Below, piece by piece: positions 3,014 to 60,221 of a DNA stretch of 64,000 nt. Location: sequence record NC_054934.1; one strand, written 5' to 3'. The notes beneath the pieces were generated by a model that ran no database searches, was not told where the DNA came from, and saw only the letters and a program-made list of their open reading frames with translations. How positions within the stretch are numbered: position 1 is the first letter of the stretch; each line of letters opens with the position of its first letter. The stretch comes from Escherichia phage teqskov. Position numbers and translations under genes: made by a program.

Positions 3014-4786
3014 TTAATTAACTCCAGTCGCATCAAATACACCAGGAGCAGTCGTGCTCGTTACGGGTGTCATATTATGAACGACAGTATTTTTCTTAAT
3101 AACATTATTAGTATTATTGATCGAAGGAGATGCTTGTTGAACAGGAGCTTGCTGTGCTTTGTTCTTTTCTATTACCTGGACTTGTTTTGCTTCTGGCGAT
3201 TTAGCAGAAGTTTCAGGTTTGGCATTAGGCTGATTTTTCTTGAGCTCTTGATAAGTAGCATCAATTTTAGAAAATCTAGCAGCAAGTTCTTTTTTAACTG
3301 CCGGTGAATTATTTAAATCCGGGTCATCCATCCGTTTTTTAAGGTCTTCATAGGCAGCTTCAACTGATTTAACCGTTGAGTCTTTACTCATATCAGCTGA
3401 ATCAGCATATTTTTCAAAACGAATCATCGCGGCACGGGCTTCATTAGCCTTCATTAAAGCATTTTTTCTTTCTTCAGGTGAAAGTTGCTTTAATTTTTCT
3501 TCTTCTGCTGCGCGTTCTTCATCGGTTGTCAATGCTTCTTTATTATCAACGCCACGAATCCAGTTAGATGCACGAGTTTTCCAATTAGCAATTTTATCTA
3601 ATCCTTTTGCTATCGGACCAAGGTCTCCGTTCATTCGTTTATCTTGATAATTTGCAACTTTTTCCTGGTCTTCTTTATTGAGAGATGCTCCAGTAGAATT
3701 TTGGAAATTTTCTAGTGCTCTTCCTTCTACTTCATCAGCGGTATCCTTCATGCCAGGAATGACTCGAAGAATTGCAGCAGATAATTTAGCCATTCCAAGC
3801 TGAATAAGTTCTCCTAAATTATAAAGAACCTTTCCAAGCCCTTCTACAATAGCTACCGTCAAACCGCCCCAATCTCCCTCTTCCCAGAATTTTTTAATTT
3901 CATCAATAGAACTAAAGATGCTCTGTAATAAAGGACCCCATGTTCCGGTTTCGCTAGAGAATTTAGTAAAGTCTGTACTAAACAAATCCCAAGCCTGCGA
4001 AAATTTATCTGACCAATATTTGAAATGAACCATCAGCAGATCTATTCCAACAACAACAGCCAATATCATTGCAGTCATTTTAGCAGCTTCAATAGCAGCA
4101 CTAACGGTATACTTAAATAGCATGCTTGATATTTTATCAGTAATTGAAATGGATTTCTTAAATCCAAAATCAACAGTCTTTGTTAATTTATCTAAAGCTT
4201 GAGATAATTTTAAGTTAAATGCGTCTTTTTTCTGTTTTTCTTCTGGCGATTCTTGTTTAGGTTCAACTGGCTGAGGGGTAGGGAAAAAATCAGCATCAGG
4301 ATCATTATTAACTGCTTCAGGAGCCGGTAATAAAGGACCCACAGATTCAGCTGTATCGTCCTCAACAACTTTAACAGGAATAGCGCTTTCAACCGTAGCT
4401 AAACTAGTTCCTGTTTGTTGAATTCCAGCTGTCTGAATTTTTTGTTCTAATAAACTCGTTAATTTATCTAATTTGCTTCCGAGTGATTCGCCTATTTCTT
4501 TATTGATATTATTGCCAATTTCAACAGTCTCGGCAATTAACTCAGAACCAGCAGTAGTATCACTCACTGCGCTTTCTACATTGTCAATTGCTCCAATTAT
4601 TTCATTCGATTTTTCTTCGACAGTTTGAGCAATTAATTCAGAAGCAGCTTGAGCATCATCCAATTTCGTAGATATATCGTTAAGTCCAGATAAAGTGTTA
4701 GAAGCGGATTTAGCCGCTTCCTGTGTTGGTTTATTATCTGAAATAACTTTTCTACGCATCGTTTGCATTTCTTGTGGCTTTTTCAT
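3014..4786 (-). CDS. 29: tail tape-measure / baseplate hub protein gp29
   Basis: 590 aa as in T4 gp29; extended low-complexity/coiled regions; synteny. Confidence 0.8.
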   Translation of the reverse strand: MKKPQEMQTMRRKVISDNKPTQEAAKSASNTLSGLNDISTKLDDAQAASELIAQTVEEKSNEIIGAIDNVESAVSDTTAGSELIAETVEIGNNINKEIGESLGSKLDKLTSLLEQKIQTAGIQQTGTSLATVESAIPVKVVEDDTAESVGPLLPAPEAVNNDPDADFFPTPQPVEPKQESPEEKQKKDAFNLKLSQALDKLTKTVDFGFKKSISITDKISSMLFKYTVSAAIEAAKMTAMILAVVVGIDLLMVHFKYWSDKFSQAWDLFSTDFTKFSSETGTWGPLLQSIFSSIDEIKKFWEEGDWGGLTVAIVEGLGKVLYNLGELIQLGMAKLSAAILRVIPGMKDTADEVEGRALENFQNSTGASLNKEDQEKVANYQDKRMNGDLGPIAKGLDKIANWKTRASNWIRGVDNKEALTTDEERAAEEEKLKQLSPEERKNALMKANEARAAMIRFEKYADSADMSKDSTVKSVEAAYEDLKKRMDDPDLNNSPAVKKELAARFSKIDATYQELKKNQPNAKPETSAKSPEAKQVQVIEKNKAQQAPVQQASPSINNTNNVIKKNTVVHNMTPVTSTTAPGVFDATGVN

Positions 4787-24122: not shown

Positions 24123-27263
<3,141 letters not shown>

Positions 27264-56076: not shown

Positions 56077-56607
<531 letters not shown>

Positions 56608-56666: not shown

Positions 56667-57083
56667 ATGACTCGTATTAATTTGACTTTAGTATCTGAAC
56701 TTGCTGATCAACATTTAATCGCAGAATACCGTGAATTGCCACGTGTTTTTGGTATAGTTCGTAAGCATGTGGCAAACGGTAAGCGCGTTAAAGATTTTAA
56801 AATATCTTCCGAGTTTATTTTAGGTTCTGGTCATGTTACGTTCTTTTACGATAAGTTAGAATTTTTGCGAAAGCGTCAATTAGACATTATAACGGAATGC
56901 TTAAAACGAGGGTTCAGTATAAAAGATACTGAAGTTCCTGACATCAGCGATATTCCAGTAGAATGGAAAAATGATTATAATCCATGCAAATCAGCTATTA
57001 AATTGAGTCAACAACGACTTGATGAAAAAATTTTAATGAAACCACATTGGTATAAGTATTACGGTAAAAATATTTACATTTAA
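56667..57083 (+). CDS. denV: endonuclease V (pyrimidine-dimer DNA glycosylase) DenV
   Basis: 138 aa; [17 protein letters not shown]... recognised. Confidence 0.9.
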
Positions 57084-57092
57084 AGGAAACAT

Positions 57093-57566
57093 ATGAAAAC
57101 ATATCAAGAATTTATCACTGAAGCAGCTATTAATTCTCAAATTATTGCTGAATCTTTTACCGATCTTTTGAAATTTAAAAAAGGTCAAAAAATCACTGCT
57201 GTATTGGATGATGGTACAGAAGTTGAGATGGATGTACAGGGATATAATTATGCAGTAGATGGAAAACTGTATAATAAATCTCATGCTAAATTTGATTCAT
57301 TTGACGACTTTGTTAATACAGTTGAAGATGAAAAAACTCGTAGATCCATTGCAACTGGTGATGCTAAGGTTCTTATGGCACATGGTCATGAACGCATTCG
57401 CGCTAAACAGAATAAAATGGGTGAAGATAATTTTGCATTAGTTGGTTATCAATCTGGTAAACAAACTTATGGCTATCAACGTACTGCTACCATGTATAAT
57501 AAAAATGGTAAAATCGCTTTCGTGAATAGTAAAGGTTCTATTCAGTACGTTAAATCGTTCAAATAA
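57093..57566 (+). CDS. CTS-bearing internal protein (ipII/ipIII locus), 157 aa
   Basis: N-terminus MKTYQEFITEAAINSQIIAE; position after denV corresponds to T4 ipII/ipIII. Confidence 0.6.
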   Translation: MKTYQEFITEAAINSQIIAESFTDLLKFKKGQKITAVLDDGTEVEMDVQGYNYAVDGKLYNKSHAKFDSFDDFVNTVEDEKTRRSIATGDAKVLMAHGHERIRAKQNKMGEDNFALVGYQSGKQTYGYQRTATMYNKNGKIAFVNSKGSIQYVKSFK

Positions 57567-57707
57567 TATGGGAACAACCTGGACCTCATGATTCTATGAG
57601 GGATTCCCGCCAACCTGTAATAAGGTCGAGCCTGAGTGCGGTAATGGGTAAATACAGAAATGGACAATTCATGCGCCACGGAATGGCCCAAATTTAGAGA
57701 GAATAAA

Positions 57708-58247
57708 ATGAGAACATTTTTAACTGGTCCTTATCTATCCCTGATGAATGCTTTTACACACCATTCTGACGCTAGAGTAGAAGAAATTTGTAAAAACGAA
57801 TATATCCCGCCATTTGAAGAATTACTTAAACAGTACTGCACACTTCGACTAGATGGTGGACGTCAATCTGGTAAATCAACTGCAGTAACTAATTTTGCCG
57901 CTAATTGGTTGTATGACGGTGGAACAGTTATTGTTCTTTCTAATACTTCAGCTTACGCTAAAATTTCTGCAAATAACATTAAAAAGGAATTTTCGCGTTA
58001 TTCTAATGATGATATACGTTTTCGTTTATTTACTGATTCTGTACGCAGTTTTATTGGTAATAAAGGAAGTAAGTTCAGAGGTTTATCGCTTTCGCGAATT
58101 TTGTATATAATTGACGAGCCTGTCAAATCTCCTGATATGGATAAGATTTATAGTGTCCATATTGACACTGTACACTGCTGCTGTAATATTAAATGTTGTA
58201 TTGGTGGTATTACTCGTCCACAGTTTTTCGTAATCGGAATGCAATGA
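57708..58247 (+). CDS. small P-loop NTPase (Walker A GGRQSGKST, Walker B ILYIIDEP)
   Basis: ATG at 57708 with GAGAGAA upstream (the ORF track extends to an ATG at 57660); Walker motifs read directly. Confidence 0.55.
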   Translation: MRTFLTGPYLSLMNAFTHHSDARVEEICKNEYIPPFEELLKQYCTLRLDGGRQSGKSTAVTNFAANWLYDGGTVIVLSNTSAYAKISANNIKKEFSRYSNDDIRFRLFTDSVRSFIGNKGSKFRGLSLSRILYIIDEPVKSPDMDKIYSVHIDTVHCCCNIKCCIGGITRPQFFVIGMQ

Positions 58248-58573
58248 TGACAGACACTCAGCTTTTCGAATATCTTTATTTTTCGCCAAAAACTATTAAA
58301 AATAAATTGGTGAATCATTTTGAAATTTTGGCAAATAATAACACTTTGAGCGAATTTTATCCCAAGCAATACAAATTACAAAAAGGTATATTCAAAGGAT
58401 GCAGAGTTTTGTGCACTGCTCCTAATGCACGGCTAATGAATAAAATTCCATATTTTACCATGGAATTTATTGATGGACCTTTTAAAGGATTAATTACCCA
58501 AAGTTTAATGGCATATGATTCTGAGCCATTTTTAATTAAAGAACAATCTTGGATAAATTTATTTTCTAATTGA
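58244..58573 (+). CDS. hypothetical protein (109 aa) translationally coupled to the P-loop NTPase
   Basis: ATGATGA start/stop overlap at 58244-58250. Confidence 0.5.
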
Positions 58574-58580
58574 GGTTTAT

Positions 58581-58943
58581 ATGAAAGCATATCAAATTCT
58601 TGAAGGCACACATAAAGGCACTATTTATTTTGAAGATGGTATTCAAGCACGAATTATTGTCTCTAAAACCTTTAAAGAGGACTCTTTTGTAGACCCAGAA
58701 ATTTTCTACGGTTTGCATGCCCGTGAAATTGAAATTGAGCCACAGCCTACAGTTAAAATTGAAGGTGGTCAACACCTGAACGTTAACGTTCTGCGTCGTG
58801 AAACTCTGGAAGATGCAGTTAAGCATCCGGAAAAATATCCGCAGCTGACCATCCGTGTATCCGGTTATGCAGTTCGCTTTAACTCTCTGACTCCGGAACA
58901 GCAGCGCGACGTTATCGCTCGTACCTTCACCGAGAGTTTGTAA
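58581..58943 (+). CDS. autonomous glycyl-radical cofactor (GrcA/YfiD-like)
   Basis: C-terminal [29 protein letters not shown] contains the glycyl-radical motif RVSGY; 3' half has host-like GC and codon usage. Confidence 0.8.
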
Positions 58944-59164
58944 TGGCAAAGATAATTATTGAAGGTTCTAAAGATGTGCTAAATGCTTTCGCCGAGTGGT
59001 TTAGTAATTCAGGCGAACAGCAATTTAACGAAGCGTGGAATATGGGTGATATTGATGGAATTTATCCTACTACAGAAATTTCTGTTCAGGGATATGGCAT
59101 TCATGAACCTATTCGTTTAGTTGAATACGATTTATGTACTGGTGAGGAAGTCAAATATGATTGA
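58943..59164 (+). CDS. hypothetical protein (73 aa)
   Basis: ATG overlapping previous stop. Confidence 0.5.
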   Translation: MAKIIIEGSKDVLNAFAEWFSNSGEQQFNEAWNMGDIDGIYPTTEISVQGYGIHEPIRLVEYDLCTGEEVKYD

Positions 59165-59453
59165 AGATATTAAAGGTTATAAGCCACATACCGACGAAAA
59201 AATCGGTAAAGTAAATGCTATTAAAGACGCTGAAGTTCGTTTAGGACTTATCTTTGATGCTTTATACGATGAATTTTGGGAAGCATTTGATAGCTGTGAA
59301 GATGATGAACTCGCGAAGAATTACGCCGAAAGCCTCGATCAGTTAACTATTGCTAAACGAAACTCAAAGAAGCCAGTATGTGGGCTTGTCGTGCAGTGTT
59401 CCAACCAGAGGAAAAATACTAATGGCTCAATTAAGTGCAGGGTTTGGTTATGA
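59157..59453 (+). CDS. hypothetical protein (about 98 aa)
   Basis: ATG at 59157 overlapping previous stop (ATGA); ORF-track start 59121. Confidence 0.45.
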
Positions 59454-59700
59454 GTATTATACTGCCCCTCGTCGTGTATCTGTCGCTCCTAAGAAAATTC
59501 AAAGTCTTGATGACTTCCAGGAAGTAGTCCGTAAAGCTTTCCAGGACTATGCACGTTATCTTAAAGAAGATTCACAGGACTGTCTCGAAGAAGATGAAAT
59601 TGCTTACTATGAGCAGCGTCTTGAACAGCTTAAAAACTTACATGAGGTTCGTGCAGAAGTTTCAAAGTCTATGAATAAATTGATTAGATTTAAAGAATAA
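59422..59700 (+). CDS. hypothetical protein (about 92 aa)
   Basis: ATG at 59422 with GAGG upstream; overlaps 3' end of previous ORF in another frame. Confidence 0.45.
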
Positions 59701-59759: not shown

Positions 59760-60221
59760 ATGACTATCAATACAGAAGTTTTTATCCGTCGAAATAAGCT
59801 TCGTCGTCACTTTGAGTCGGAGTTTCGTCAAATTAACAATGAGATTCGTGAGGCATCAAAAGCAGCAGGAGTCTCATCGTTTCATCTAAAATATTCTCAA
59901 CATCTTCTTGATCGTGCAATTCAACGGGAGATTGATGAGACATATGTTTTTGAATTATTCCATAAAATAAAAGACCATGTTTTAGAAGTTAATGAATTCC
60001 TGAGTATGCCTCCGCGTCCTGACATTGACGAGGATTTTATTGATGGGGTTGAATATCGTCCTGGACGTTTAGAAATCACAGATGGAAATCTTTGGCTTGG
60101 ATTTACGGTTTGTAAGCCTAATGAGAAGTTCAAAAACCCGTCACTTCAATGCAGGATGGCAATTATCAACAGTCGTCGTTTACCAGGAAAGGCTTCTAAA
60201 GCAGTAATTAAAACTCAATGA
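59760..60221 (+). CDS. regB: RegB endoribonuclease
   Basis: 153 aa; MTINTEVFIRRNKLRRHFESEF recognised; own early promoter. Confidence 0.8.
   Translation: MTINTEVFIRRNKLRRHFESEFRQINNEIREASKAAGVSSFHLKYSQHLLDRAIQREIDETYVFELFHKIKDHVLEVNEFLSMPPRPDIDEDFIDGVEYRPGRLEITDGNLWLGFTVCKPNEKFKNPSLQCRMAIINSRRLPGKASKAVIKTQ

Follow-up and report, generated by a model that had tools for sequence, protein, structure and literature searches.

An early T4-like gene pair, vs.8-vs.7, in Escherichia phage teqskov: a stand-alone relative of the terminase ATPase core and its small neighbor

EcAvs2 is an immune sensor that normally detects the phage packaging motor, the terminase, and when T4 proteins were screened against this sensor with AlphaFold 3, the screen picked vs.8, described as an uncharacterized ATPase-like protein homologous to the T4 terminase's ATPase domain (PMC13601566, Nat Commun, August 2026). 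Co-expression of T4 vs.8 with EcAvs2 was toxic and activated the sensor, and an AlphaFold 3 model with an interface predicted template modeling score (ipTM) of 0.84 placed vs.8 in the Avs2 pocket; for the role of vs.8 in infection, the authors raised anti-defense as one possibility (PMC13601566). In another study, a T4 fragment spanning vs.8 to vs.3 was cloned under the vs.8 promoter without toxicity, and when vs.3 to vs.8 were expressed singly, only vs.3 (TadIV-1) blocked type IV Thoeris (PMC13243611). Time-resolved transcriptome and proteome data list both vs.8 and its neighbor vs.7 as early RNA and early protein of T4 (PMC9697503, supplementary files 4 and 6). In engineered T4-like phages, about 7 kb between pin and vs.7 was replaced and viability was kept (PMC10869271), and this region is dispensable for laboratory growth. 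Both genes are thus already catalogued, and the terminase-like ATPase nature of vs.8 is already published. Here, we analyzed their counterparts in a 64,000-nucleotide (nt) segment of the genome of Escherichia phage teqskov, a Tequatrovirus (T4-like) phage (sequence record NC_054934.1); this whole stretch is referred to as the window. Its vs.8 product is related to the ATPase core of gp17, the large terminase subunit, but is truncated and stands alone, corresponding to N-subdomain I and nothing more.

Orthologs of T4 vs.8 and vs.7

Analysis of the window revealed two overlapping open reading frames (ORFs), one of 179 amino acids (aa) plus stop at 57708-58247 (+) and one of 109 aa plus stop at 58244-58573 (+). 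They are the orthologs of the T4 early genes vs.8 (NP_049732) and vs.7 (NP_049731), respectively. The vs.8 protein shares 91% identity with its T4 counterpart over 195 aa and about 95% over the conserved 179 aa; the divergence is confined to residues ahead of the Met at 57708, and the two proteins are nearly identical from MRTFL on. The T4 protein of this comparison is the one used in the Avs2 assay. The vs.8 protein of phage RB27 is 100% identical to that of the window (tblastn), and vs.7 shows 97% identity to T4 vs.7. The two proteins belong to PHROG 1488 (phrog_1488; E = 9e-80 over residues 3 to 179, with matching synteny) and PHROG 2049 (phrog_2049; E = 7.6e-54), respectively, and the vs.7 core columns G48, F50, P69, F75, G82, and S87 are all present in the window protein. 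Phage RB14 carries the names vs.8 and vs.7 for both ORFs, and the order vs.8-vs.7-vs.6-vs.5-vs.4-vs.3-regB is common to the window and T4/RB14, as is the ATGA overlap. At the DNA level, region 57560-58600 was best matched by REP2 and REP3 (98.6%) and RB27 (98.1%), and 712 phage records matched overall. The first-pass annotation of this locus, made from the sequence alone, had matched neither ORF to a T4 gene of known function. The genes have indeed no assigned function, but they are themselves the T4 genes vs.8 and vs.7.

The ratio of nonsynonymous to synonymous substitution rates (dN/dS) was 0.07 to 0.11 for vs.8, which indicates purifying selection, and 0.02 to 0.34 for vs.7, with few substitutions behind the figure. 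Both genes are under purifying selection. With tblastn, 1008 phage records were found to contain vs.8 and 928 to contain vs.7. The dN/dS ratios, this spread over about 1000 and about 930 records, and the early RNA and protein of the T4 orthologs show both ORFs to be genes and not chance reading frames, and their coordinates are as originally called.

Several GenBank records, e.g., that of phage teqhad (L002, 1649-2514), label vs.8 and vs.7 as "endoribonuclease." BLASTP comparison with RegB of the window, encoded at 59760-60221, yielded only chance matches of 3 to 11 residues. Because neither protein resembles RegB, the label represents a propagated annotation error. The same label is found on vs.3 and vs.1 in deposited genomes.

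vs.8 and the ATPase core of gp17

The conservation of vs.8 was judged on 21 homologs reaching down to 39% identity; all homologs of vs.8 are 173 to 196 aa long. The Walker A motif (P-loop), GGRQSGKS (residues 50 to 57; 57855-57878, +), includes a P-loop arginine, R52, and residues D49, G50, G51, R52, Q53, G55, and K56 were invariant. In the Walker B motif, ILYIIDE (residues 131 to 137; 58098-58118, +), which includes the catalytic glutamate E137, residues L132, I134, I135, E137, and P138 were invariant and residue 136 was either D or E. The dipeptide R124-G125 (58077-58082, +), located 11 to 13 residues ahead of Walker B, was invariant too. Further invariants of the family were the N-terminal helix motif YLxLMxAF, the extended signatures TLxxDGGRQxGK and LxII(D/E)EP, and residues A59, F63, W67, R113, K146, and Y148. 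At the C terminus, F..G.Q followed directly by the stop was invariant, including G177 and Q179. The earlier description of this ORF as a small P-loop nucleoside triphosphatase with both Walker motifs (A and B) was upheld, both motifs being invariant or nearly so. A Cys cluster had also been pointed out at the end of the protein. HCCCNIKCC is present at residues 156 to 164 (58173-58199, +), whereas its Cys residues are not kept beyond Tequatrovirus/Mosigvirus-type sequences and the predicted local distance difference test score (pLDDT) is below 50 at residues 157 to 167. A metal site was rejected on these grounds, and the cluster is not a defining motif of vs.8, because it is unconserved and lies in a variable loop predicted to be disordered.

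A link between vs.8 and the large terminase subunit emerged from profile comparisons. Of the 21 vs.8 family members, 20 were matched by phrog_2, the PHROG family of terminase large subunits (best E value, 6e-8), over residues 43 to 142, from Walker A to Walker B, and 14 were matched by Pfam Terminase_6N (best E value, 1.4e-5). When the vs.8 family profile was compared with gp17 of the window itself (gene at 24126-25958, minus strand), the two were aligned at an E value of 6.7e-4. In this alignment, R52, K56, R124-G125, and D136-E137 of vs.8 pair with R162, K166, R245-G246, and D255-E256 of gp17; GGRQSGKS pairs with 160-LSRQLGKT-167 (the motif itself being 161-SRQLGKT-167), and FRGLSLSRILYIIDE pairs with residues 244 to 256. 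vs.8 has both the terminase form of Walker A (G/S-R-x-x-G-K-S/T with the P-loop arginine) and that of Walker B (hhhhD plus the catalytic Glu, preceded by Arg-Gly). By spacing, the end of the protein, FFVIGMQ, sits at the position of the gp17 C-motif, KIIITTT, with residues that differ from TTT.

The AlphaFold2 model of vs.8 (pLDDT, 80; predicted template modeling score [pTM], 0.81) shows alternating strands and helices. This fold points to an ATPase of the helicase/terminase-type additional strand catalytic glutamate (ASCE) class, and the P-loop arginine together with the RG-Walker B block points to the terminase lineage. The Pfam hits for the window protein, AAA_14, AAA_30, and Terminase_6N, are all P-loop families and all below threshold. 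AAA_14 matched 20 of the 21 family members, and phrog_2586, an unnamed family of small proteins, matched all 21. Nothing meaningful was found with vs.8 in NCBIfam; a PADLOC scan returned only noise (E values above 0.005), a profile search of PDB sequences gave no significant match, and Foldseek returned only weak generic matches for the model. Assignment to a kinase or another P-loop class was rejected: the AAA_14 and AAA_30 matches are weak, homology to a housekeeping kinase was sought and none was found, and the Asp-Glu of the vs.8 Walker B motif marks an ASCE-class ATPase site and not a kinase-type site.

Since all catalytic residues and a candidate arginine finger are invariant, vs.8 is predicted, most likely, to bind and hydrolyze ATP, probably as an oligomer. 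R124 is the candidate for this finger by analogy: it aligns with gp17 R245, presumably the position of the inter-subunit arginine finger in other terminases.

Comparison with N-subdomain I of the gp17 ATPase (PDB 2O0H) revealed likeness in the P-loop arginine of RQxGK[ST], the RG motif, the hhhhDE of Walker B, and a strand ending at the C-motif position. In contrast, vs.8 consists of 179 aa and gp17 of 610 aa, vs.8 has neither subdomain II (the lid) nor the RNase H-like nuclease domain, it ends in G-M-Q where gp17 has the TTT C-motif, and the identity amounts to only about 12%. vs.8 is therefore a homolog of the ATPase core and not a terminase, because it is 179 aa long, ends at the C-motif position, and lacks the lid and the nuclease. 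The homology to the gp17 core, and the fact that vs.8 keeps the residue that aligns with the inter-subunit arginine, would suit a packaging regulator, in which vs.8 would join or cap gp17, gp16, or the portal as an extra or poison subunit and thereby time or restrain the terminase. This explanation is very unlikely, as vs.8 is expressed early and gp17 late, vs.8 lacks the second gp17 subdomain and the nuclease domain, and some T4-like lineages and all other terminase-using phages manage without vs.8.

vs.7, its linkage to vs.8, and the role of the pair

The AlphaFold2 model of vs.7 (pLDDT, 89) shows two N-terminal helices followed by a small beta-barrel. The conserved core extends from about residue 41 to residue 95 (58364-58528) and has the pattern KxYxFxxGPFKG ... 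P.F..EF..G...G....SL..YD, and Merlin- and Marfa-type proteins lack the first 40 residues. When a 43-sequence vs.7 profile was run exhaustively with HMMER against 1.84 billion representative proteins, it returned 11 clusters, all of 70 to 133 aa, and an indexed search returned 48 proteins, each with a precomputed PF26834 label; overall, the homologs span 70 to 139 aa. Among the 1.84 billion representatives, no homolog was found outside T4-like phages or fused to other domains. By sequence, vs.7 showed no similarity to any solved structure in the PDB, and we found no functional discussion of vs.7 in the literature. By its predicted structure, vs.7 is a small SH3/KOW-like barrel protein, restricted to T4-like phages, and the barrel can be likened to KOW, SH3, and KIN17-type binders of nucleic acids or peptides. 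We also considered whether vs.7 supplies the part that a split terminase ATPase would be lacking, and rejected the idea, as vs.7 showed no similarity to gp17 in a profile comparison, its predicted fold is SH3-like, and none of the homologs is a vs.8-vs.7 fusion.

The two genes share an ATGA overlap (58244-58247, +) within the sequence ATGATGA: the vs.8 stop codon TGA occupies 58245-58247, the vs.7 start codon ATG occupies 58244-58246, and a second ATG begins at 58247. The linkage of the genes was surveyed in 48 loci from Tequatrovirus, Mosigvirus, Dhakavirus, Karamvirus, Moonvirus, Marfavirus, Klebsiella phages, and metagenomic contigs; one locus ends at vs.8, so that the downstream sequence was readable in 47. 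A match to the vs.7 hidden Markov model (HMM) lies directly downstream of vs.8 in 44 of the 48. The junction overlaps in 42 of the 48 loci (42 of the 47 readable ones), as ATGA in 32 and as TAATG in 10. The overlap with the vs.8 stop codon recognized in the first-pass annotation is therefore real and recurrent. The linkage of vs.8 and vs.7 is strong, not obligatory, and does not extend to fusion.

With a probability of roughly 55%, the locus is best explained as encoding an early ATP-binding terminase mimic, vs.8, that acts with vs.7 as its partner in phage-host conflict. The identity and the biochemical parts of this explanation are near-certain, and the biological role is uncertain. vs.8 would be made early as a stand-alone terminase core that binds and hydrolyzes ATP, probably as an oligomer. 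vs.7 would most likely serve as its stoichiometric partner or adaptor. Together, the two proteins would show an ATP-loaded, terminase-shaped surface early to host factors that recognize the terminase fold.

Several observations weigh against this explanation. vs.8 activates EcAvs2 and does not block it (PMC13601566), which at face value is harmful to the phage, and a pure decoy would need no catalytic glutamate. The window vs.8 scores 14.3 bits against Terminase_6N, below the curated cut-off of 22, and gp17 was not recovered by the profile search of PDB sequences with vs.8. Three loci (L025, L047, and L046) keep vs.8 without vs.7. In the T4 annotation from 59 to 68 kb, 10 of 23 neighboring gene pairs overlap by 1, 4, or 8 nt; because overlaps are ordinary in this genome, the overlap alone tells little about a functional partnership. 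The dependence of vs.8 on a partner that had been read from the coupled arrangement was not established, since the overlap is normal gene packing and vs.8 occurs without vs.7.

The last two observations would also fit vs.7 being merely the next gene, its overlap with vs.8 reflecting compact T4 packing and the two proteins having independent functions. In two of the loci without vs.7, L025 and L047 (~3507-3525), a TAATG overlap connects vs.8 straight to a vs.5 homolog, and vs.6 is absent as well. vs.7 also evolves faster than vs.8, with identities between T4-type and RB69-type proteins of about 63% and 88%, respectively, and some vs.7 proteins lack the N-terminal 40 residues. Independence of the two genes is possible, with the odds against it: their adjacency persists across genera whose other neighbors change, and vs.7 homologs were found neither outside T4-like phages nor in fusions.

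Alternatively, vs.8 might be an early enzyme unrelated to immunity, a small oligomeric ATPase working on DNA, RNA, or a host protein with vs.7 as its substrate adaptor, and its recognition by Avs2 would then be a side effect of ancestry. The invariance of the full catalytic set and the strong purifying selection on vs.8 are in line with such an enzyme, as are the fold, which is common to helicases and translocases, the likeness of the vs.7 barrel to nucleic-acid or peptide binders, and the mildly basic character of both proteins (predicted isoelectric point, 8.8 to 8.9). In vs.8, however, neither a nucleic-acid-binding domain nor a second RecA-like domain can be recognized, laboratory growth does not require the region, and no substrate was hinted at by the Pfam, NCBIfam, PADLOC, and PDB sequence searches. 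We consider an enzyme of this kind conceivable and hold it at clearly less than even odds.

A further alternative is a dedicated decoy or counter-defense. Here, vs.8 would bind terminase sensors of the Avs or Upx type early and unproductively, and vs.7 would mask or tune it, so that during an actual infection the sensors are titrated and not triggered. vs.8 has the terminase-like shape and the ATP site, it is made well before gp17, it is dispensable and lineage-restricted, and it adjoins the sponge genes vs.3 (TadIV-1) and vs.4, the latter of which we take to encode Acb2, a sponge of the cyclic oligonucleotide-based antiphage signaling system (CBASS). The AlphaFold 3 placement in the Avs2 pocket and the anti-defense possibility raised by the authors point the same way (PMC13601566). 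A decoy of this kind nevertheless appears doubtful: vs.8 expressed alone activates EcAvs2, it failed to block type IV Thoeris, and the invariant catalytic Glu and the candidate Arg finger exceed the needs of binding mimicry. More broadly, the host-takeover or anti-defense role suggested in the first-pass annotation is conceivable: vs.3 and vs.4 nearby are counter-defense sponge genes, and activation of EcAvs2 is the only functional result for vs.8. The preferred explanation remains an ATP-binding early mimic that has vs.7 as its partner.

Conserved leader, neighboring genes, and known systems

The 140 nt between the upstream internal-protein gene and vs.8 contain a conserved, strand-specific element of about 120 nt (57571-57689, +). 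This element is a probable structured leader or small RNA and may control the expression of vs.8-vs.7. Its structured core (57571-57653, +), described by covariance model R1, consists of a P1/P1a stem-loop and a three-way junction in which P3 closes P2 and P2b. A hairpin, GCCA-CGGAA-UGGC followed by CC (57675-57687, +), is located some 20 nt ahead of the vs.8 start, and no other piece of the leader is kept as widely. It is followed by a purine-rich, Shine-Dalgarno-like tract, AGAGAGAA (57696-57703, +), 5 to 12 nt before the vs.8 ATG; in most loci, an AGAGA or AGGAA tract is comparably placed before the conserved vs.8 start. Long blocks upstream of vs.8 are conserved across distant genera, namely, CCTGTAATAAGGTCGAGCCCAAGTGCGGTAA and then ATGGAC...GTGCCA.GGAATGGCCC, and a 43-nt leader core is 71 to 86% identical where the vs.8 coding DNA is 57 to 68% identical.

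Comparative analysis supported a common structure. RNAalifold applied to T4-type and Vequintavirus-type copies gave 20 pairs, 7 of them with compensatory changes. Covariance model R1, built from that alignment, had only one match in the window, which scored 83.4 bits (E = 1e-20), and one or two matches in 21 of 22 further loci; all these matches, in the window and elsewhere, lay on the strand of vs.8. L046 was the sole searched locus without the element. In the resulting alignment, A8, 89% of the cells were paired, compared with 76% in shuffles, 13 of 20 pairs change on both sides, and the covariation score was 0.307, compared with 0.137 in shuffles and no more than 0.126 in slid controls. As A8 had been fitted to the model and its sequences are relatives of one another, this covariation is supportive and not conclusive. 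The 3' hairpin precedes vs.8 in nearly all loci and shows the compensatory variants GGCA/UGCC (L021) and GACA/UGUC (L044). Folding of the single leader sequence was uninformative (z = -0.19); the structure is visible by comparative analysis only.

About 924 phage records contain the leader core, and generally no annotated feature covers it there. In Vequintavirus (rV5-like) phages, the copies are intergenic, and downstream of them come a small ORF with no known function, a cluster of tRNAs, and the terminase genes. In three Vequintavirus-like contigs (L063, L068, and L075), the terminase large-subunit genes are split by group I introns (matches to Rfam Intron_gpI of up to 81 bits), and their frames suggest an intein-like insertion directly after the terminase Walker A region. 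In Marfa (L007, ~1956-2494) and Roth66 (L005, ~1962-2491), an inserted internal-protein gene has a full copy ahead of it, and before vs.8 only the 3' hairpin is repeated, which looks as if the gene had been inserted by recombination at the hairpin. Two loci carry two tandem, diverged copies before vs.8 (L017, 2717-2927; L029, 2768-2934); in L044 (2768-2843 and just downstream), a second, degenerate copy appears to be present by eye, and the covariance model finds only one.

Other explanations of the leader were examined. A search with the 4227 Rfam covariance models gave no match at E values up to 1 for the window region, six T4-like loci, and the element position in Vequintavirus-type loci. 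ARAGORN was negative for a tRNA or transfer-messenger RNA. A sigma-70 promoter or terminator was not supported, as the scan found no more sites than in shuffles and none in the leader; a GTTTAC-17-AATTAT arrangement occurs in some genera, but it is not intact in T4-type sequences, and in Merlin a 37-nt insertion interrupts it. A promoter-like site (TTGACA, a 16- to 17-nt spacer, and TAATAT; 58162-58190, +) is located in the variable 3' part of vs.8, upstream of vs.7, and such sites were no more numerous across the region than in shuffled sequence. The leader is also not coding, as indels between genera are not multiples of three. The RefSeq entry of T4 vs.8 has 219 aa and counts the leader as its first 40 codons (L003, 5794-5913, minus strand), and the window ORF can be read from an ATG at 57660 (195 aa), whereas cross-genus conservation sets in with the Met at 57708. 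As the extra codons fall in the conserved noncoding element, the longer annotation probably extends the gene too far. No prior study of the leader was found in the literature. It is improbable that leader, vs.8, and vs.7 form one regulated terminase-mimic module, in which vs.8 would be active, vs.7 would cap or tune it, sensors such as Avs2 and Upx would be subverted, and the leader would represent a new class of cis-regulatory RNA, shared with rV5-like phages, that controls the timing and the amount of module expression.

The local gene order is nudE, e (56113-56607), denV (56667-57083), an Ip4-type internal-protein gene, vs.8, vs.7, vs.6, vs.5, vs.4, vs.3, regB, vs.1, and vs. The Ip4-type gene (57093-57566, +) encodes an internal virion protein with a DUF7412 domain and the N terminus MKTYQEFITEA and lies between denV and vs.8, whereas in T4, denV directly precedes vs.8. 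T4 ipII and ipIII lie on the opposite side of denV, and the internal-protein locus is polymorphic. Downstream, vs.6 (58581-58943, +) has a C-terminal glycyl-radical domain (Pfam Gly_radical, E = 2.8e-18) and corresponds to a GrcA/YfiD-like spare part for pyruvate formate-lyase. The vs.4 (Acb2) homolog (59157-59453, +) is close to T4 over the first ~67 residues, then diverges and is 10 residues longer; it overlaps the start of vs.3 (59422) by 32 nt, and its C terminus suggests a frame change. The vs.3 homolog (59422-59700, +) shares 98% identity with T4 Vs.3 (TadIV-1), which acts as a sponge that takes up the signal of type IV Thoeris.

Like many other conserved early genes of T4, vs.8 and vs.7 have no assigned function. 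The reason why a phage keeps a catalytically intact packaging-ATPase core as an early gene bears on how phages cope with immune sensors of indispensable proteins, and whether vs.7 alters the host's view of vs.8 matters as well. To the published picture, our analysis adds a residue-level case for the predicted catalytic competence of vs.8 and its end at the C-motif position, the predicted SH3-like fold of vs.7 and its very narrow distribution, how far the linkage of vs.8 and vs.7 goes and where it ends, and a conserved, probably structured element in the vs.8 leader, which current annotation, RefSeq T4 included, takes for coding sequence or for an empty spacer.

The leader and vs.8 can each be set beside known systems. 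The PeSL promoter-terminator cassettes of T4-type phages are short composite motifs with many repeats per genome (PMC2839356, PMC4122927). The upstream element resembles them in being conserved, intergenic, and adjacent to variable genes, as with the internal-protein gene of Marfa and Roth66. It differs from PeSLs in being single-copy in the window, about 120 nt long, supported by covariation, and common to Vequintavirus. T4 vs.8 shares with Ksap1 and Ksap2 the small size, the sheet-and-helix core resembling a terminase ATPase, the Avs2-dependent toxicity, and the restriction to particular phage lineages (PMC13601566). Unlike what is reported for Ksap1 and Ksap2, vs.8 has detectable sequence homology to the terminase and keeps both Walker A and Walker B.

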